DNA of 64,000 bases, from IMG/VR virus record IMGVR_UViG_3300024261_000005, one strand, 5' to 3'. The stretch comes from a virus. The position numbers and the translations under genes were made by a program. This document shows positions 16,337 to 62,921 of the stretch, piece after piece (position 1 is the stretch's first letter; each line of letters begins with the position of its first letter). Under the pieces are notes generated by a model. The model saw only the letters and a list, made by a program, of their open reading frames with translations. It was not told the DNA's origin and did not search any database.

Positions 16337-17830
16337 TTAGTAGTTTTCAAGTGTTTTCAAGACATCAGCAACATTATTGCTATTTTTTATCTTCTCAAAC
16401 AAACTTATGCTGTCTTCGCCTAGCTTCGGAGAGGATCTTTCACCATGCTGATTTGCTGGTTTTGAAATATTATTAGAAGTGTTTAATTCGGTTGAACTCT
16501 TCACTATTCGCTCTTGCGCTAACGTCGAGTGTAACTTCTTTACATCCTCCTCAGTCAGGGGGCGCTCTCCCAGCTTTGTTCTTGCCTCTGTTTCGCTTAT
16601 CAAATTGTTTAACCACAACTGTACGATTTGGTTCTCTACCTTTATTTTCTCTTCTTTGTCTACCGCACCGAACTTAATGTAAACCATTCTGTCGCTATCA
16701 AACATTGCTTCTTCATAGCCACCTTCACAAAGTAGTTCTGAAATAACATAAGTTTCAATAAAAGTTTTTATATTTCTCTGTAAGGCTTCTACATCTTGTA
16801 TCGCAATTTTCGACAAGGCATTAGCAGTACTTCTATTCGCAGTATCACCTTCACCCATGTCCATGGCTGAAACACCAAGACCTGCGTACACACGCTTCTT
16901 GAAGTAATCCAAGTACTCTTGGATTTTAAGCGCCTTACCTTCGGAGCCAATAGCGTCAATTTTGTGCCTATGATCTGAAACAAAGATTCCACCTGAAGGC
17001 ATATACTCAATCGTATTTCGAACCAAATCTGATTCCTTTACTCCGTCAGGACCATATCTTTCAGGCATCAAATCATTGCCAACCGTGTAGTGATACAAGG
17101 GGTGCAAGTTAGCATCGATCATCTCCTCGATGTTTTCTTCAAGCCTTCTTAGCAGAGCAATGTCTTCTAGTACTGGAAGTAGCTCAGGTGTTCCCATAGT
17201 AAACCCAGCTTTTCTATTTGTGTAGAAATGAATGACATCATCAGGTGAGAACTCTTTGCTCTCTGCACTTGCTAATTGTTTCTGCAAGATCTTTTTAATC
17301 TCACCGTTTTTCTTCACTTTGAACCATAAAGTTTCAAATGGAAGTATAAAATACCCAGCAACAGGCTCTACAGACTTGCCATTCTTGTCTAAGACTTTCC
17401 CTGTAGAGGCATCGCTATTTCTGTTTTTAACCCATGCACAATTTGAATACCTAATTAAGTCATGCGCCAGGTCTGTCATTAATAAATTAAACGGCATACC
17501 AGAAACAGTCTCTATTTCTTTTATTCTTCTTCTTATATAGTTTACTGTCTCTTTATCGTTGCCAACAAACTCCCATCCAGCCAATACAAATCTTTGAACT
17601 TTCTTTTGTATCGCTTTGAACAAAAAAGCATCCGTATCTTGAGCTATCTGTATTTCAGTTAGATCATACTCTGGCTTGAACCAAGATCCTCTATGCCTAC
17701 TTGCGTAAGATAGCGCTCGCCCGTTTACTTTTTTAACTTTAACGCCAGAAATATTCACTCCAGGAATTGGAACATTTCGATCTTTATTAGAGATTGCATT
17801 TAGAATTCCTTCAAAATCATTTGCTTTCAT
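16337..17830 (-). CDS. Portal protein
   Basis: FSPDDVIHF...GTPELLPVLEDI...YFKKRVYAGLGVS...GEGDTANRSTA...ISETEAR pattern; synteny. Confidence 0.8.
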   Translation of the reverse strand: MKANDFEGILNAISNKDRNVPIPGVNISGVKVKKVNGRALSYASRHRGSWFKPEYDLTEIQIAQDTDAFLFKAIQKKVQRFVLAGWEFVGNDKETVNYIRRRIKEIETVSGMPFNLLMTDLAHDLIRYSNCAWVKNRNSDASTGKVLDKNGKSVEPVAGYFILPFETLWFKVKKNGEIKKILQKQLASAESKEFSPDDVIHFYTNRKAGFTMGTPELLPVLEDIALLRRLEENIEEMIDANLHPLYHYTVGNDLMPERYGPDGVKESDLVRNTIEYMPSGGIFVSDHRHKIDAIGSEGKALKIQEYLDYFKKRVYAGLGVSAMDMGEGDTANRSTANALSKIAIQDVEALQRNIKTFIETYVISELLCEGGYEEAMFDSDRMVYIKFGAVDKEEKIKVENQIVQLWLNNLISETEARTKLGERPLTEEDVKKLHSTLAQERIVKSSTELNTSNNISKPANQHGERSSPKLGEDSISLFEKIKNSNNVADVLKTLENY

Positions 17831-25535: not shown

Positions 25536-27746
25536 TTACCTCCAGCTTCTTCGTTTTTTACGGCCAAAACGACCACGTTTGGGAGCATGCTGTACTTCAC
25601 TTATTGGACGCATACCTTGCTCAGTACCTTGATAGGAGTTGATTCCTTCAAGTAGGGAGAACTCTTTCTCTTCTTTTATACTACGAGAACGACTTGATTT
25701 TCTATCATTAGGCAACAAACCTTCTCTAATATACTTTTCCCTTATCATTCTGTCTTCTTCTTCGGATCCACCACCCCGCATTATTCGCAACACATTCAGT
25801 GCACCTGGATCAGATTGAAGTTTCTTTTGCTCATAAAGCTCTCGAATTTCATCATTCGGAGATCTATAAAGATTCTTTATGGCTTCAACTTTATGGAAGG
25901 TAGGCATACTTGGAGTCATTTGGTTTCCAGAGTATACTGACTCTTCTAAAACCAACCCACCTAACGCTAGCATGAAAGCGTCGAGTCTATGATCTCCAAC
26001 CTTTTCATTCTGCTTTCCGTATACTGGCTTGTTGTTCTGTTTGTTTCTTTTCTCTACGATGTAGTTGAAGAACTGATCTTTCAAGACAACGTCATCTACT
26101 GGAAATTTAAATAATCCGTCCTGAAGAATTCTAACTGCATTCTCAACTAAAAAATGCTTACCAGATTTTTTAATGTCCTTGTTGGTAATAGGATCTTTAA
26201 GCTTTATGTTGGAACTAAAATTAAATGATACTAAACGATCCGCTATTAAAACTGTCTCTGCCTCTTTAGCCGTCTTGTCTTGTTTGGCCCTAAGAGTATA
26301 GGATTGATATTTTATATCTTCTATGATTGTATGGCCGTATCCTTCGTCCGCATAGATATGGTCTGGTTTCCATTTATAATTAAGATCGATTAACTCTTTT
26401 ATCCACCGCCTAGCAGAGAATTCAGAGTGAGGTACGTTTACTGCATCCAATGCGATCCAAATTCTATCGCTTGGAAAATAACCAATAACATAGAATTCAG
26501 TACCTGCATTTTTATTCCAGTCGATACCTATCGCTATGGTTCTCTCTGTTGCGGACTTTAACCCTAGTTTTTTCTGCAAATGATGCGGAGAATAGGCTTC
26601 GTCGTATGTATAATCCAACCGAGCGCTGTAAATCCAATCTCTCTTGAACACCCCTTGAAGGTCGTCAATAAAGATTGCCATGTACTCCGCCATGAAAGAT
26701 TCTTGGGTTGAATCACGAAGTATCTCTTCTTTTATGGCTTCCCAATGCGGGATTACTGAACTAGGTAAAAAGTCTTCTCTAAAATCATCTCGCTTCAAAC
26801 ACCATTCGTGAAACTTACCTTTCTTACCAATTGGTGTAGATGTGGCGATTAAAATTGTATCAGGCGTTGTGGCCAGAATAGGATTAATAACTTTATCTAA
26901 TACTTCTTCTGGAATCATATCCATCTCATCCAAGTAGACGATAGATGCAGATTGACCACGCATAGTACCACCACCGCTGCCGTCAGATCTCATACCTATT
27001 CCAGAAACAAACCCTTGTATAACCGCACCGTTTTTCATTTCCATTTTAAAAGTTGGCGTCTTTATATATAAGCTATCTCCAGTACCAGAAGTAACTTCTG
27101 CTTTTAACTCTATGTTTCTCTTTAATAGTTTCTCCATCTCTTCAAAGAGATTCGTCAGTTGCGCTTGATAAGGCGTAACGATCATTATCGCCGGCCCCAT
27201 ATAAACTATGTTCCCTTGCGCATCTCTACCTCTATCTAATTTAAGATTGTATGCGTAATACAATAGTTTTAATGCCATCGCAAAAGACTTACCTGAGCGA
27301 CGACCTTCTCTTATTACCATCCTCTTTGAAGTGCATCTTATTTGTTCCTTCTGGTAGCTTCTTAAGAACCATTTATCATCCCTATCAGAAAACCCAAACA
27401 TTAACTCCACCCAAGATGCAGGATCTATTGAAGCCTTTAGTATTCTAGTCGCTTGTTCTTCTGGTATGTTTGTGCTTTTAGAGATCTCTTTTATTTTTGA
27501 TGCAGCACCATCTGGAAGCTTTCTTGGTATGTAACTGCACTTTATCCTGTTGGTGCCATACTTCTTTATCTGCCGTATCTGACAAGTAACACAAGTCTTA
27601 TGAACATCTGTCTTTAGCGAATACTCCCTCTTAAAATATGTTATTAATTCATCGGGTATTATTGCGGCAGGATCTTGATGCTCAATCCCGTACTCGTTAA
27701 CAGAATAAATATTATCATCTATTAATTGTTTTAATTTAGGATGCAT
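25536..27746 (-). CDS. terL: Terminase large subunit
   Basis: LRSYQ, Walker A GRRSGKS, Walker B VYLDE, TSTP coupling motif, nuclease IGIDWN and DHRLDA. Confidence 0.92.
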   Translation of the reverse strand: MHPKLKQLIDDNIYSVNEYGIEHQDPAAIIPDELITYFKREYSLKTDVHKTCVTCQIRQIKKYGTNRIKCSYIPRKLPDGAASKIKEISKSTNIPEEQATRILKASIDPASWVELMFGFSDRDDKWFLRSYQKEQIRCTSKRMVIREGRRSGKSFAMALKLLYYAYNLKLDRGRDAQGNIVYMGPAIMIVTPYQAQLTNLFEEMEKLLKRNIELKAEVTSGTGDSLYIKTPTFKMEMKNGAVIQGFVSGIGMRSDGSGGGTMRGQSASIVYLDEMDMIPEEVLDKVINPILATTPDTILIATSTPIGKKGKFHEWCLKRDDFREDFLPSSVIPHWEAIKEEILRDSTQESFMAEYMAIFIDDLQGVFKRDWIYSARLDYTYDEAYSPHHLQKKLGLKSATERTIAIGIDWNKNAGTEFYVIGYFPSDRIWIALDAVNVPHSEFSARRWIKELIDLNYKWKPDHIYADEGYGHTIIEDIKYQSYTLRAKQDKTAKEAETVLIADRLVSFNFSSNIKLKDPITNKDIKKSGKHFLVENAVRILQDGLFKFPVDDVVLKDQFFNYIVEKRNKQNNKPVYGKQNEKVGDHRLDAFMLALGGLVLEESVYSGNQMTPSMPTFHKVEAIKNLYRSPNDEIRELYEQKKLQSDPGALNVLRIMRGGGSEEEDRMIREKYIREGLLPNDRKSSRSRSIKEEKEFSLLEGINSYQGTEQGMRPISEVQHAPKRGRFGRKKRRSWR

Positions 27747-46328: not shown

Positions 46329-46479
46329 TTTTAGCGAAAGCTGCTCTTCGGAGCAGTTAGTAGTAATCTCGTAACACTTAGGCGTGACGAGACGAGACGT
46401 AAAGTCTCAAGCCATATACTTATATATTAAGGCTTAAAACTAATATATATGATTTAGACTTTTATCATAAAAAAGTCGG

Positions 46480-48460
46480 CAAAATCTTAGTTGATGCAAA
46501 CGGACGTAATGTCGCCAGTTAAATCATTGAGTAATGTCGTGCCGGATCCCTATGTGGACGAGGTGCTTGATGAGTCTACGAGTGTTGAGATACACTTGCA
46601 GCATCCATTCTAAATGGATGTCTCTCCGGAGAACGAAACATTTGGATGTAGAAATACATCAGCGCTTGGGGAAGCGCAATAGAAATATCCAACCAAAGCA
46701 CCAACAGAAAGGGAAAAAATGTTGTAGTGTTTTTGATAGGTGGGACTCGAGGCCTCTTCACTGAGGTAATGATATCCACCGTCAGCCGAAATGCTGACCG
46801 CTTAGCACCCTAAGGCTAAGTAGACTTGAGAAGTTTTTGGGTTTCATCACCTAACTGGTATCCTCTACCAGTAAATAAAACAGAGGTTTTGGAGAATAGT
46901 TTAGGGCTATTCTAGGGTTTGCAGCTATATTGCCGCCCACCATTTAAAATAAGTAGTGAATACCCGCTGGAGAGATTAAGCATCTCCAGTCTGCCTTACA
47001 CAGTCTGATTAGTGTATGAGGTAGGAAGGGGAGTGACTCTTAAAGTCAAAAGTGCCAACCGAACAGATAGGTTGGTTCCGAGTTCTCATGCTTGGAGGTA
47101 AGTCATAGTTAATGGGTGCCATCTCTCAGGATCGAGTGCGATGGTAGAAGCGGAGTTAGCAGTAGAGCGATCTTACGGTGTGCGCACACCAAACTGCTAT
47201 AAAGACTCTGTGGAGGAAAGTGTAGTTGAGATGAAAGTCTTGATGAACAACCTCGTTAAAACAATGTAGGCATGACGTCCTGAATACTCTTCTGAGTGAA
47301 TGGGCCTGATGTGTTGCTTTCGGGCAACGAATCATGACGAGTTACCAATCTCATTAAAATTGGTTCCATGAGCTACGAGAATGGCAACATGGGTAATTAG
47401 CTAGGGTGTGCAAGCCGAAGCTGCGGAGAAGGAACTCCGTCAAATCAAACGTCCCGGTATTCATATACAATTGACGCCCGCAACCTGATTGTGGAAATCG
47501 AAAGGTATGATAAGAACCGGGGCTATTAGATACGTAACAACGTACTAGCTCATCATTCGGATGAGCAGGTAGTCAACAACTTCTCAGGGACCATATGGTG
47601 TGTGCACGCACCTCCCTACCGTTATTTCCTAGGAATAACGACAATAAGGTATAGCTTCTAAGGAATATATAAGAAGCTGAACGGATTTAACTCAAAGCGG
47701 TTTGAGTTTCGTCTGAAAAAAGATCCCCATCATGTAAGATCCTACCAGGTCTAAAGGATGGGGGGACGAAGTAGTCAAGGGTTTAAAAACCCCAGTCCCA
47801 GCTACTTCAAACAAGGTGTGTTGGAGGGGTGGAAGAACTGCAAGTATACTTGTGGATCTTCCACCTCAGAAGGCATATCTTGGGCTCAAGCTGTAATACA
47901 GCCTAAGCCACCCCGTCGCCAACGGGGTCAATAAATCGCATAAGGTTCGCTTTATGTTATTCATTGACCTTCTTGGTCATTAATCATGCAGTAGGACCTC
48001 CCTTGACAAGGAGGGCGATCTGCACCAGCGACAGAAGTCAACTGTCCCTGGTTGAGTGGTGGAAAGCTCCCTTTTTATAGCTGAACAATTCCACTCTGTG
48101 ATAGGGTCCTCCCGAGAAAAGGAGCATCTTTGGACCGACCACCCCATATTATATTGTGGGATCTGGAAGGCGACAAGGTGAAGACCCGAACGAGCGCCAC
48201 GATCAAAGTGGCCTCACCTATCAAGCCCCGCATCGAAGTGATGTGGGCCGGAGTAGAGTTCCCCAGTTAGGGTAGAGCTCCTCCGATGAGAAATGTGCGA
48301 TTAGAGCGCGCAGAGTGGGGTAAGGTCCAGCTGATTTAGGGCCCAGGGAGAAAGTCAAAATGTGCGTTTAAAGCACGTGAGAACTGTTTTCCTAGGGGGT
48401 AGAGACTTATTATTTTGGCCAAAAATGACGAGATGTGACAATTTACTTGTCTTTCCTTGT
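46480..48460 (+). ncRNA. Candidate giant structured ncRNA (about 2 kb; boundaries and strand approximate)
   Basis: No credible ORF; dozens of near-perfect hairpins and nested long-range helices containing G-U pairs on the + strand. Confidence 0.65.
47271..47336 (+). ncRNA. Type III hammerhead-like fold with variant core
   Basis: CATGA-C-GTCC...GGGC-CTGATGT-GTTGC(TTTCGG)GCAAC-GAA-TCATG. Confidence 0.45.
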
Positions 48461-48536
48461 CATAATGAGGTTAAAAGTAGCTATAAATACCTAATATATA
48501 AGGGTTTATAGTTATAAAGATAGAAAGTCGGGGTGC

Positions 48537-48624
48537 ACCTAGTCAAACCCTAGTCCAGCCCTACTCCAACCCTACCTCAGCCCTAGTCCAACCCTAGTCC
48601 AACCCTACCTCAAAGCTAGGCAAA
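48537..48624. repeat. 11-bp degenerate tandem repeat, about 8 copies (consensus CCCTAGTCCAA)
   Basis: acctagtcaaa/ccctagtccag/ccctactccaa/ccctacctcag/ccctagtccaa/ccctagtccaa/ccctacctcaa/agctaggcaaa. Confidence 0.9.
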
Positions 48625-49085: not shown

Positions 49086-49135
49086 ACGCCTAGCCCTCTT
49101 GGGGGACTTTGATAGATTCGACTTCTATTAGGTGT
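49086..49135 (+). ncRNA. Mini tRNA-like element (acceptor + one hairpin + T arm)
   Basis: ACGCCTA/TAGGTGT acceptor; ATAGA-TTCGACT-TCTAT T arm. Confidence 0.5.
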
Positions 49136-49139
49136 TTTA

Positions 49140-49277
49140 GGAAAATCCGTAGAGATAGAGAACCAGCAAGTTCTTTATTGAAGCCGTTATAAGTTTTGCT
49201 GAGCTTATATTCGAAAAAAGGATGGTGCTCGCGCGCGGTTATTGCGAGTTGCAGGGGTTCGACTCCTCTGTATTCCG
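49140..49277 (+). ncRNA. tRNA-like RNA with internal kissing-loop domain
   Basis: GGAAAAT/GTATTCC acceptor (one mismatch); AGGGG-TTCGACT-CCTCT T arm; complementary loops CAGCAA/TTGCTG. Confidence 0.55.
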
Positions 49278-49293
49278 TTACATCAGCCTATGG

Positions 49294-49497
49294 GGAGAGA
49301 ATCACTAATCCCGGTATAGTGGTTTGTCTGCAACCTTGACAACTGTGCAAAGAGTCAACAACGTGACGGAAGTAGGACGCCTTAACGTTATTGGAAGTAT
49401 GCATGGTTAGACATCGATTGAGATGTGGTTACCGCCACATGTCCTAAACCTCAATCTAAAGCAGACAGAATAGAAGGTTCGAATCCTTCCCTCTCCA
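49294..49497 (+). tRNA. tRNA-like RNA (possibly Cys-GCA) with about 130-nt structured insert in the anticodon arm
   Basis: GGAGAGA/CCTCTCC acceptor; CACT/AGTG D arm; TTTGTCTGC/GCAGACAGA extended anticodon stem; GAAGG-TTCGAAT-CCTTC T arm. Confidence 0.6.
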
Positions 49498-50261
49498 GCA
49501 GCCCCTTATGAGAACTACTTCTACGTAGTTGGGGTTCAGGCAATTTCAGTAGCCTATATGGTTGTGCGTAAAGCACCTATACTGATAGCAAAGGTTCTCA
49601 AAGAAGAAGAAAATGCGCGCGATATTAAGCAACTGATTTGCTATTGCGTTCATAAATTCTTTTTTAGTCTTTATTATTAATAACTTAGAAGTTTGACGAG
49701 ACAAAACTTTTAAAGATATTGATTTAAAGATTCATTTAATACACCAATTCTTCTTAGAAAGACAAAACATGTTTAAAATTATTTTGTCGGAAAGGACACG
49801 ATTCATGAAACAGTACGAAGCATACTGCAAGGGAATGGCGTATTTTCCGCCAACAGGACTTAATCCAAGATAAGTCAATAGAAGAAGTGTTCGATGTATT
49901 ACACACATTATGTCGTGCAACACGAATGCCAAATCTATTGACATGTATTCTCGCGTACCCTACTGCACGAAAGCACGCACTACGCGTCTTGCAGTATGGA
50001 TGTCCACGCAGTCGTAGAAACCACAACAGTGCAGGTGCATCATGCATCTGCAAAGGAGTAGAAGAATGACTATCGTCATTATAGTAGTGACTGTTACAGT
50101 CACTATAATATTCACAAAATTGTTTGTTTGAGACTGGGCTGAGGAGCCCTCGAAATGCCACCCCTTAAAGGTTTATTAGCTCGTCACTAATTGTAATAAT
50201 GGTATCGTGGTAACTTTAGCCACATGATTAGACCCCCAACTTTTTGCCGAAAGGGCACAAA

Positions 50262-52876: not shown

Positions 52877-53198
52877 ATTCAGCTTCACATTCTACATAAC
52901 TTTGAGCTTCTTGATGTTTGACAGACATCAAACCTTCGAACAATAAGGAATCACATGACTGCGATTATAATAATTCTATGCCTATTCAACTCAGTCATCC
53001 TCCTTAAATTGGCTTGGCTCCTATCAGAGCCATATTAATCCTAAAACCGCTAAGGTAACATAGCGGTATATAAATAACGAGGCGTCACTCTCATAATGTC
53101 TAATAGGCAGAGAGAACTACACCCACGCCTACAATGGATAAACATGAAGAAAGTAGAATCTTCTTTGTGCCAAGAGTGTTACTTGGGGTGATTTATAT

Positions 53199-53362
53199 GC
53201 GGAAGTAGCTCAAAGGTAGAGCGTCAACCATACCGGGATAAAAGTGGTGATCAAAAGGGCTAGAAATCCTTGCGGTCGCCACTGAAAGACCAAACGTACG
53301 TGCTTTCTAGCGTAGGGGTAATACAAGTTGAAGGCATGCAGGTTCGAATCCTGTCTTCCGCC
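53199..53362 (+). tRNA. tRNA body (Gly-like scaffold) with about 91-nt pseudoknotted insert in the anticodon loop
   Basis: GCGGAAG/CTTCCGC acceptor; GCTC/GAGC D arm; TCAAC/GTTGA anticodon stem enclosing 98 nt; GCAGG-TTCGAAT-CCTGT T arm. Confidence 0.75.
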
Positions 53363-53366
53363 GCAA

Positions 53367-53438
53367 AGACTCTTAGCTCAACGGTAGAGCAGCGGACTTT
53401 TAATCCGTTGGCTCTGGGTTCGAATCCCAGAGGGTCTA
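53367..53438 (+). tRNA. tRNA-Lys(UUU)
   Basis: Full cloverleaf; GCGGA-CT-TTT-AA-TCCGT; no encoded CCA. Confidence 0.92.
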
Positions 53439-53530: not shown

Positions 53531-53603
53531 GGGCCTATAGCTCAGTGGTTAGAGCTCCCGACTCATAATCGGCAGGTCCCAGGTTCAAATCCTGGTGGGC
53601 CCA
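53531..53603 (+). tRNA. tRNA with CAU anticodon (Ile2-like; Met not excluded)
   Basis: Full cloverleaf GGGCCTATAGCTCAGTGGTTAGAGC..CCGA-CT-CAT-AA-TCGG.. Confidence 0.9.
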
Positions 53604-53698
53604 TTCACCTAAAAGACATAGAACTCAGATGATTATGAAGTAGTAGCATACTGCTTCTCATGTTTCTATTACCGCAAAATCCAAATAAAGGCAAAAAG

Positions 53699-61718: not shown

Positions 61719-62858
61719 ATGCTTAAAATAAAATCTACTATATGCTTAAACATGATAGTGAAAAATGAAACAAAAACCTTACCGAGGTTATTTGAATCAT
61801 TAAAAAACATTATTGATACTTACGTAATCGTTGATACTGGAAGTACGGACGGTACGCAAGAATATATCACCAATTATATGGATGAACTGGGTGTGCCTGG
61901 CCAACTTTATGAACGGCCTTGGGTCAATTTTGGTGTCAATCGACAAATAGCATTAGACTTAGCTACAGGCACTGCAGACTATGCTTTAATCATAGATGCA
62001 GATGAAGAACTTATCGTTAAAAATTTTGAATTCTTTAAAAATCTAAATTTAGACAAGTATAGCCTTATAAAAGAATTGTCATCAATAGAAATTCAAATCC
62101 CTGCATTAGTTAGAATTTCAAACTCCAACGAGCAAGGGTGGGTCTGGAGTGGCGTTGTCCATGAATTCTTAACTTGTCCCCCAGGTGCCTCTTCGGAAAA
62201 TGTCCCTAAAGAAACCGCCTACATACATAGTCATTTGTTCGAGGGCTGTAGATCGCAAAACGTTACAGTAAGAGAGAAGTATTTAAAAGACGCAAAATTG
62301 CTTGAAGCGGAATTAATGCGAAATCCAAGCGACACAAGATCGATTTTTTATCTTGCTCAAAGCTATAGGGATGCAAATGAGCCTGACAAGGCAATTGAAA
62401 ATTATTTAAAACGAGCTGAAGCAGGAGGCTGGACCGAAGAAGTGTTCTATTCCTACTACCAATTAGGGCTGTTGACACTTCATGTAAAAAACGATGTTAA
62501 AAAAGCAGAAGGATACTTTCTAGATGCAGCTAAGGCAAATCCACGACGCTATGCAGAAGTGGCCTACCCTCTTGTAAAGCATTACAGAGCGATAGAGGAC
62601 CACTCGAGTGCAGTATTCTGGGGCTGGTCTGCGCTACCGTCAATGAAACTCCAAGAGGAGCAACTATCTGGCAGCTGGCTGTTCTGTCAGAAAGATGTTT
62701 ATGACTGGAGGCTAAAAGATGAACTATCTCTAGCCTTGTATTATTTTAATGCAAAGCCAATTTCTGAAAAGCTTATGAAAGAACTATTAACCGAAGTTCC
62801 TCCTGAACAAAAACAAAGGATCATAAACAACCTTTACTTCTTTAAAGAAGTAAAGTAA
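61719..62858 (+). CDS. GT2 glycosyltransferase with TPR repeats
   Basis: ICLNMIVKNE, VDTGSTDGT, IDADE, GVVHE; TPR FYLAQSYRD. Confidence 0.9.
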   Translation: MLKIKSTICLNMIVKNETKTLPRLFESLKNIIDTYVIVDTGSTDGTQEYITNYMDELGVPGQLYERPWVNFGVNRQIALDLATGTADYALIIDADEELIVKNFEFFKNLNLDKYSLIKELSSIEIQIPALVRISNSNEQGWVWSGVVHEFLTCPPGASSENVPKETAYIHSHLFEGCRSQNVTVREKYLKDAKLLEAELMRNPSDTRSIFYLAQSYRDANEPDKAIENYLKRAEAGGWTEEVFYSYYQLGLLTLHVKNDVKKAEGYFLDAAKANPRRYAEVAYPLVKHYRAIEDHSSAVFWGWSALPSMKLQEEQLSGSWLFCQKDVYDWRLKDELSLALYYFNAKPISEKLMKELLTEVPPEQKQRIINNLYFFKEVK

Positions 62859-62873
62859 CAATATTCTTCTTAC

Positions 62874-62921
62874 GGATTATAAGGCAATTTTTAAGCTGAG
62901 GTTCAATTCCTCAGCAATCCA
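62874..62921 (+). ncRNA. Mini tRNA-like element or tRNA remnant (acceptor + T arm only)
   Basis: GGATT.../...AATCC-A; CTGAGG-TTCAATT-CCTCAG. Confidence 0.45.

Follow-up and report, generated by a model that had tools for sequence, protein, structure and literature searches.

A conserved tRNA-shaped gene of a marine phage with a folded module in its anticodon loop: a candidate scaffolded RNA

Background

What kind of RNA is encoded by a phage gene that has all four stems of a tRNA and 98 nucleotides (nt) in place of an ordinary anticodon loop? The question is raised by positions 53199-53362 (+) of a 64,000-nt stretch of viral DNA, IMG/VR record IMGVR_UViG_3300024261_000005, called the window below. 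This candidate RNA gene lies in the tRNA cluster of a tailed phage, on the same strand as the cluster. The portal gene (16337-17830) and the large terminase gene (25536-27746) are found within the same window, which covers less than half of the phage genome. DNA of the window was detected in more than 20 seawater or marine metagenome runs, which makes its source an uncultured phage of the sea.

Phage tRNA clusters have long been known to contain small stable RNAs of unexplained role, such as T4 species 1 and 2, and phage tRNA genes with unexplained inserts are a more recent finding. The candidate would link both, with a complete and conserved cloverleaf as the carrier of a kissing-hairpin module. 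We give a probability of about 0.5 to the reading that this is a gene for a conserved, non-decoding and stable RNA built on a tRNA scaffold, with the kissing-hairpin module as its active part. The evidence that carries it is a cloverleaf, a folded module, loop complementarity above chance and conservation that preserves base pairs, together with a module that falls outside the known intron and ribozyme classes and a design that recurs in a neighboring RNA and in T4 species 1 RNA.

Results and discussion

The tRNA body

The Rfam tRNA model (RF00005) aligned end to end with 53199-53362 (46.8 bits, E 9e-9, model positions 1-71; the gathering score is 29 bits) and placed 97 nt as an insertion in the anticodon loop. 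ARAGORN missed the gene with default settings and, when introns were allowed, returned a 'tRNA-Val(tac), 91-nt intron'. All four standard stems are present: acceptor GCGGAAG/CTTCCGC, D GCTC/GAGC, anticodon TCAAC/GTTGA and T GCAGG/CCTGT, the last with one G-U pair. U8, G18 G19 and the T loop TTCGAAT are standard as well; with its four-stem cloverleaf, its elbow nucleotides and a score above gathering, the gene belongs to the tRNA family of Rfam. Position, sequence, the four canonical stems and the 98-nt anticodon 'loop' (53229-53326) are as the original prediction had described them. It had passed over the two non-standard features of the body, a 6-nt variable loop (AGGCAT) and a C as discriminator (C73), and a second hairpin on the downstream strand of the insert. 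The parts of the body, and of the internal loop between anticodon stem and insert module, are as follows.

53199-53228 (+): 5' tRNA part, with GCGGAAG, U8, D arm GCTC-AAAGGTA-GAGC (G18 G19), G26 and TCAAC; from Rfam and ARAGORN
53229-53230 (+): C32 and 'position 33' (A in the window, C in the related locus L001), the 5' strand of the internal loop that separates the module from the anticodon stem
53321-53326 (+): 3' side of the internal loop, AUACAA; UACAA is invariant and the first A is G in one read-derived variant
53327-53362 (+): 3' tRNA part, with GTTGA, AGGCAT, T arm GCAGG-TTCGAAT-CCTGT, CTTCCGC and the discriminator C

Isotype signals are mixed. The anticodon remnant UAC indicates Val, the acceptor GCGG... 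is nearest to phage tRNA-Gly (E 0.2), and C73 and the 6-nt variable loop complete the picture. When the joined exons were compared by BLAST, the best full-length matches were phage tRNA-Gly at 74-76% identity with a non-significant E of 0.2, which lends little weight to the 'Gly-like' character first ascribed to the body. U33 is nearly universal in tRNAs. A decoding loop, that is 7 nt with U33 and a purine at 37, is formed here neither directly nor after excision. The 7-nt excision products are CAUACAA in the window, exactly the loop without U33 that had been predicted, and CAUACAA or CCUACAA in L001. The would-be position 33 differs between haplotypes, being A or C in the 5' copy and A or G in the 3' copy, and is never U.

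Fold of the insert

The insert folds better than its dinucleotide shuffles (z = -3.4). The minimum free energy (MFE) and centroid structures concur in a three-way junction, in which a closing helix carries a long arm A and a short arm B.

53231-53320 (+): module proper, 90 nt from the first to the last base of the closing helix; from MFE and centroid structures and covariance model R1
53231-53234 with 53317-53320 (+): closing helix P0, UACC with GGUA, extended by GG/CC; UAUC in L001, paired via G-U
53243-53283 (+): arm A, with a 10-bp outer stem (53243-53252/53274-53283), a 2x2 internal loop, a 5-bp inner stem (53255-53259/53267-53271) and the loop CUAGAAA (53260-53266)
53295-53316 (+): arm B, a short hairpin with C53295-G53316, UACGU (53297-53301) paired to GCGUA (53310-53314) and the 8-nt loop GCUUUCUA
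53304-53310 (+): UUUCUAG, within and beside the loop of arm B and exactly complementary to that of arm A; kissing-loop pair or pseudoknot

The outer stem of arm A, AGTGGTGATC (53243-53252) with GGTCGCCACT (53274-53283), has 10 bp, two of them G-U, and is the enclosing pairing that the original prediction had seen in the insert. CTAGAAA makes up the entire 7-nt loop of the inner hairpin and has an exact complement, TTTCTAG, at 53304-53310. A loop-to-distal complement of at least 7 nt arose in 4 of 1000 dinucleotide shuffles. The pseudoknot proposed for these two strands is upheld as far as the 7-nt complement goes. The eighth pair that would belong to it (G53259-C53311) competes with the inner stem, and the UUUCUAG strand can sit in a second hairpin, arm B, so that the 'pseudoknot' may equally be a kissing-loop pair. 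Covariance model R1, built from the module, matches only here and at the loci L001 and L004.

The cloverleaf with the module reaches -54.8 kcal/mol, against -55.9 kcal/mol for the unconstrained MFE structure; loop-loop pairs are counted in neither. The unconstrained structure swaps the anticodon stem for an alternative 15-bp hairpin (53299-53314 with 53322-53338). A fold that lies within 1.1 kcal/mol of the other would suit a conformational switch, or a charged tRNA-shaped RNA that does not decode. In such an RNA UACAA would be stacked on the 3' strand of the anticodon stem, where a synthetase could read it, and the module would block ribosomal use or toggle with the 15-bp hairpin. In favor of this, UACAA is invariant, and with the change C53335T in the variable loop the alternative pair persists as G-U. 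However, MFE programs often misfold real tRNAs, and the uncounted loop-loop pairing favors the cloverleaf form. Charging also meets an obstacle in C73, which fits no bacterial synthetase but HisRS; this enzyme needs G-1, and the base at -1 is T here. We regard a charged RNA or a switch as improbable.

Relatives and constraint

A scan of JGI metagenomes gave four loci, in two of which the RNA is present. L001 has the entire RNA at 93% identity and L004 its first 111 nt, the same as in L001. Read contigs from a 2019 marine run contained the L001 haplotype again and a third haplotype with two further changes, the latter on a low-depth contig (X21). Protein homologues of the neighboring genes were found at 66-99% identity, the more distant ones (66-79%) on contigs of up to 27.6 kb. 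Searches of INPHARED by blastn, for distant as well as near relatives, returned matches to ordinary tRNAs only. In IMG/VR the insert was absent by exact and gapped patterns, the neighboring proteins and their alignment led to nothing, and patterns for the tRNA halves led to unrelated phages only (L005-L011). Among GTDB genome contigs there was no relative by tRNA-half pattern or protein alignment.

The stems of the tRNA body are all identical between the window and L001. The body differs in the D loop, where AAAGGTA is replaced by AGTGGTTA with GG kept, and in one base of the variable loop. The insert has seven changes (7% of positions), four of which fall in helices and keep the pairing: C-G to U-G at 53233, A-U to G-U at 53243, A-U to G-U at 53255 and U-G to U-A at 53275. 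The first is a one-sided change in helix 1 (P0), which stays 100% paired, and the others are three one-sided changes in helix 3 (arm A). All 34 modeled pairs remain standard pairs in L001, and the G-G mismatch 53296/53315 of arm B becomes a G-U pair there. Both read-derived changes of the third haplotype fall on unpaired bases. Natural substitutions thus break a pair in 0 of 9 cases (seven in L001, two in the X21 read contig). When the same nine substitution types were placed randomly on bases of the same kind, no pair was broken in 0.7% of trials, or in 1.5% when the loop-loop pairs were left out. The loop-loop pairing itself is invariant between haplotypes and so has had no evolutionary test.

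Divergence of the adjacent gene is about 20% at synonymous sites (pS 0.20) and 14% at four-fold sites, against 7% in the insert. The tRNA-Lys gene, at the same evolutionary distance, shows many substitutions, with compensatory changes in the acceptor, anticodon and T stems (window 53367-53438 compared with L001 1631-1702); it was either replaced by recombination or is evolving much faster. The unchanged body stems and the slow, pair-preserving change of the insert indicate that the element is maintained, module included. The original prediction had named an unconserved random insertion in relatives as the outcome that would speak against it. Instead, the insert is kept in L001 at 93%.

These data also bear on a dead tRNA gene, decaying after a random or mobile insertion. 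Such a gene could account for the non-canonical loop after excision, for C73 and the 6-nt variable loop, for the direct repeat of 4 nt that borders the insert in the window, and for the narrow distribution, with none in INPHARED, IMG/VR or GTDB genomes. But the body stems are invariant where tRNA-Lys has changed heavily, the insert changes three times more slowly than synonymous sites with none of nine changes breaking a pair, and fold and loop complementarity are above chance. The direct repeat, ATAC, had been noticed at both insert ends and is indeed there in the window. It is not conserved: its 5' copy is CTAT in L001, which reads CTAT...ATAC, so that ATAC is no conserved boundary mark of splicing or of target duplication. 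No second copy of the insert was found in the window by BLAST, nor in the window or the fetched loci by covariance model; the insert does not behave as a repeat element, and a repeat or mobile element was rejected. We hold a decaying gene to be improbable.

Proposed maturation and action

The original prediction had left a choice between a novel small intron and a tRNA mimic with a functional domain. Its premise stands, as the insert is real, conserved, structured and outside known classes, and the evidence leans to the mimic; no observation points to the evasion of anticodon nucleases that it had offered as an example. We propose that the candidate RNA would be co-transcribed with the neighboring tRNAs and excised by the host enzymes of tRNA maturation, with RNase P acting on the 5' end and trimming plus CCA addition on the 3' end. 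This maturation is suggested by the preservation of the entire cloverleaf and of the elbow nucleotides. The tRNA body would serve as a natural 'tRNA scaffold' that provides processing, stability and a fixed geometry, and no splicing would take place. The active part would be the 90-nt three-way-junction module on the anticodon stem. Its arm loops could pair over 6-7 bp, by which the module would be locked in a compact form or copies of the RNA would be paired with one another. The module may bind a partner, either a protein or another RNA.

The insert as a possible intron

The same locus can be read as a working tRNA-Val(UAC) gene that is interrupted, at position 33/34 or beside it, by a small intron of a new kind. 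The closing helix would join the intron ends, and removal would be the work of a host or phage endonuclease and RNA ligase, or of an unrecognized ribozyme, with a non-U33 loop in the product. The insert sits in the anticodon loop, the site of all known tRNA introns, and ARAGORN models an intron there. The tRNA body is complete and conserved, with G18 G19 and a standard T loop, as a real tRNA requires, and the variable bases 53230 and 53233 would be intronic if the 5' cut fell after C32.

Several further points weigh against an unspliced, scaffolded RNA. UACAA stands exactly at positions 34-38 of a tRNA-Val(UAC) and does not vary among the haplotypes. Of the Val codons of the phage 32% are GUA, and of its Ile codons 32% are AUA. 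The neighboring tRNAs, listed here, serve codons that end in A (AAA and, should the CAU tRNA be Ile2, AUA), so that a tRNA-Val(UAC) would complete a sensible set.

53367-53438 (+): tRNA-Lys(UUU), 73.7 bits, starting 4 nt after the end of the candidate
53531-53603 (+): CAU tRNA (Met, or Ile2 type), 70.2 bits

Phage tRNA inserts that are not group I introns and whose removal restores perfect tRNAs have been published for Lak phages (PMC6784885). A ligase or endonuclease may be encoded outside the window, which is under half of the phage genome. Finally, there are only two full haplotypes and zero double compensatory changes, so the structure of the module is supported and not proven.

On the other side, excision never gives U33, and the base at that place varies between close haplotypes. 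The discriminator of ValRS in E. coli is A73; C73 is not a ValRS discriminator, and a variable loop of 6 nt is atypical as well. No phage tRNA matches the joined exons significantly; the nearest is tRNA-Gly (E 0.2), not Val. No known bacterial or phage mechanism fits removal of the insert. There is no terminal G after any excision that restores a 7-nt loop, no bulge-helix-bulge (BHB) motif and no match to an intron or ribozyme family at E up to 10. The neighboring insert-bearing RNAs described below are likewise unable to yield canonical loops. The search for an RNA ligase or endonuclease suggested in the original prediction came back empty for the window, as Pfam showed no RNA ligase, RtcB, kinase-phosphatase or splicing endonuclease among its 59 proteins.

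The joined form and an insert-free allele were sought in two DNA and two RNA runs. Neither was found, which says little, since these were Logan contigs and cover in the RNA runs was limited to the 5' half of the RNA. One RNA-library contig extends without a break over 53083-53295 and spans the 5' junction; DNA carry-over is possible, and it is weak evidence. Taken with the points in its favor, an intron is a serious rival of the scaffolded RNA, and the main one, which we nevertheless place on the unlikely side.

Known intron and ribozyme classes

The insert lies outside the known classes of introns and ribozymes. Between 52900 and 53700, Rfam at E up to 10 showed no intron, ribozyme or riboswitch family. 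Group I introns are known in bacterial tRNAs (tRNA-Leu UAA, fMet, Ile, Arg) and share the position in the anticodon loop with the candidate, in which a cut after U34 would match the tRNA-Leu intron site. They have about 200 nt or more, whereas the insert has 91 nt and was rightly judged too short for this class: there is no match to Intron_gpI at E up to 10 and no core of the P3-P7 type, and in the five excisions by which a 7-nt loop is restored the last intron base is A, A, U, A or C, never a terminal G.

Archaeal or eukaryal introns have a BHB, defined as a 4-bp helix between two 3-nt bulges and outer helices at the splice sites. An exhaustive scan gave no more than 8 of the 10 pairs, and this at a site that has nothing to do with the anticodon stem. 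The UACC/GGUA helix has 2 nt on one side and 6 nt on the other, where a BHB would need 3-nt bulges. An archaeal host with a BHB intron was also rejected, on the lack of the motif and on genes with Shine-Dalgarno contexts of the bacterial type.

Small self-cleaving ribozymes (hammerhead, twister, pistol, hatchet, HDV-like and hairpin) had no Rfam match at E up to 10. Inspected by eye, the junction strands GAUAAA and GAAAGA lack G8 and the C3 U4 context of the hammerhead, the helix order does not fit pistol or HDV, and a fold of the preQ1 type does not fit either. A tmRNA was rejected, as ARAGORN -m found none and the candidate, in contrast to tmRNA, has an intact D arm and an intact anticodon stem. 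Mimicry of a Cas12a repeat by UUUCUAGCGUAG was rejected on its stem and loop lengths.

Surroundings of the gene

The CAU tRNA has, on the reverse strand (53531-53604, -), a match of 52.9 bits to the Rfam family Plastid-ycf2 5'UTR, which overlaps plastid trnI-CAU. This places the phage CAU tRNA near the tRNA-Ile(CAU) type of cyanobacteria and plastids, which may be a hint at the host. The large terminase has only a distant likeness to those of large Bacillus and Acinetobacter phages. A crAss-like affiliation through a 2175-aa protein was tried and dropped, because tblastn gave no match among known phages.

Upstream of the tRNA cluster there is a conserved, hydrophobic micro-ORF of 27 codons (52956-53039, +; MTAIIIILCLFNSVILLKLAWLLSEPY) with an AAGGA ribosome-binding site. 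The upstream spacer (52928-53198) is 96.3% identical to L001 and conserved beyond synonymous sites (pS 0.20); it harbors the hairpin CCGCTA-AGGTAACA-TAGCGG, followed by TATATAAATA. L001 has two stretches that the window lacks: an additional gene, some 170 codons long, that separates the 131-aa gene from the tRNA cluster (L001 689-1210), and an extra small ORF between tRNA-Lys and the CAU tRNA (L001 1738-1830).

Between the region of the 2175-aa protein and the tRNA-like RNAs lies a stretch of about 2 kb that is free of ORFs and dense in hairpins (46330-48500, +). No Rfam family reaches its gathering score there, and an 11-bp repeat array (CCCTAGTCCAA-like) follows at about 48540-48610. A hairpin resembling a T arm (TGAGG-TTCAATT-CCTCA, then GCAATCC) was found at 62897-62920 (+), straight after a glycosyltransferase gene (61719-62858), and may be a tRNA-like 3' element.

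Comparison with known systems

T4 species 1 RNA (rnaC, NC_000866 70908-71046) is, like the candidate, encoded within a tRNA cluster of a phage, and both have a standard T arm as well as an acceptor-type stem. In both, the tips of two interior hairpins are complementary, UUGACG/CGUCAA in rnaC and CUAGAAA/UUUCUAG in the candidate, and rnaC abuts its neighbors as closely as the candidate abuts tRNA-Lys. All elements of this species-1-like plan (tRNA cluster, T arm, acceptor stem and two hairpins with complementary loops) are found in the candidate; the plan is a design and not a curated family. However, rnaC has neither D arm nor anticodon stem, whereas the candidate keeps the full cloverleaf and holds its hairpins as a closed module in the anticodon loop. 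Model R1 had no match on the T4 locus at E up to 10, and the likeness is a resemblance of plan, not a shown homology. RNAC of T4 is a transcript of the tRNA region that has no known function (PMC3014915).

Further RNAs of this kind occur 4 kb upstream of the candidate. The sequence 49140-49277 (+) combines a T arm (AGGGG-TTCGACT-CCTCT) and an acceptor-type stem with two hairpins; the 6-nt loop of one, CAGCAA, is the exact complement of that of the other, UUGCUG, a plan as in T4 rnaC. A second tRNA shape, at 49294-49497 (+), has a 130-nt insert in the anticodon loop and was called Gly(gcc) by ARAGORN -i, the splice register being ambiguous. At the ends of this insert CTGC/GCAG lengthen the anticodon stem to 9 bp, and the insert has hairpins of its own and a long-range complement, TAGGAC/GTCCTA. 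It is tentatively suggested, as a view that we hold to be doubtful, that the candidate, these two RNAs and T4 species 1 RNA form one undescribed functional class of phage tRNA-cluster RNAs. In such a class the tRNA body may be the scaffold, for processing and stability, of modules that close or assemble via exactly complementary hairpin loops, possibly working with the adjacent 2-kb structured RNA. Equally new would be the alternative that the kissing-hairpin module may be a third kind of tRNA intron in the bacterial world, with its own route of removal.

At the place of window 49148-49499, the related locus L002 has a different tRNA-like element (2687-2842), with the T arm GGAGG-TTCCATT-CCTCC and the acceptor-type stem GCCACAG/ATGTGGT, instead of the two RNAs of the window. 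Its flanks are 84-89% identical, and tRNA-shaped RNAs therefore seem to be swapped as cassettes. A mini tRNA-like element (49086-49135, +; L002 2600-2650) consists of a 7-bp stem (ACGCCTA/TAGGTGT), a small GC hairpin and the T arm ATAGA-TTCGACT-TCTAT and lacks both a D arm and an anticodon arm. This element is conserved in L002, where a G to A change turns a G-U pair into A-U.

Similar observations were made in unrelated phages. In a 93-kb IMG/VR contig (L011), an element of about 55 nt, TTTTGCTTGTACCTAAATTCACGGTGTAGGCCGG...GGGTTATCC, occurs three times after tRNA pieces (560-1100), and at 692-871 ARAGORN reports a 180-nt tRNA whose 84-nt insert has a nested T arm (CATTGG-TTCGAAT-CCAATC), resembling the Lak introns described next. 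A huge phage (255-kb IMG/VR contig, L007 3002-3162, -) has, beside 15 ordinary tRNAs, a 161-nt tRNA-shaped gene with a 78-nt interior, the acceptor stem CCGACTG/CGGTCGG and the T arm GCGGG-TTCGACT-CCCGC.

The 'enigmatic' tRNA introns of Lak megaphages, for which the splicing route is unexplained (Devoto et al. 2019, PMC6784885, Fig. 4, Table S6), are also structured inserts of about 80-130 nt in the anticodon loop of otherwise canonical phage tRNAs, are not group I and are highly conserved. They differ from the candidate by a tRNA look-alike nested inside them: its T arm, GGTTCGAATCC, is canonical, and an acceptor-like stem lies at the intron 3' end. The candidate has no nested T arm: the Lak example contains ATTGGTTCGAATCCAAT, whereas the sole hairpin of 5 bp and 7 nt in our insert has the loop CUAGAAA, and ARAGORN found no nested tRNA. 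Removal of the Lak introns restores a standard loop and insert-free alleles exist, in contrast to the candidate, which lacks U33 and has the insert in all DNA contigs and loci. With neither the nested look-alike nor the canonical loop and insert-free alleles, an intron of the Lak type was rejected. If the insert is spliced nevertheless, bacteria or phages have a route of tRNA splicing that is neither group I nor endonuclease/BHB.

The closest likeness to the proposed scaffolded RNA comes from the laboratory. In the engineered 'tRNA scaffold' (the approach of Ponchon and Dardel; used in PMC3753655 and PMC3401473) a structured RNA is grafted on the anticodon stem of a complete tRNA, and a stable product is obtained through cellular tRNA processing and the tRNA fold. 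A natural counterpart is not described in the literature that we searched. The scaffold is a laboratory design, unlike the candidate, which is natural. If the candidate RNA stays unspliced, phages make use of the same 'tRNA scaffold' device at which molecular biologists arrived independently, and the module would be a handle for finding binding partners, such as host enzymes or defenses directed at tRNAs.

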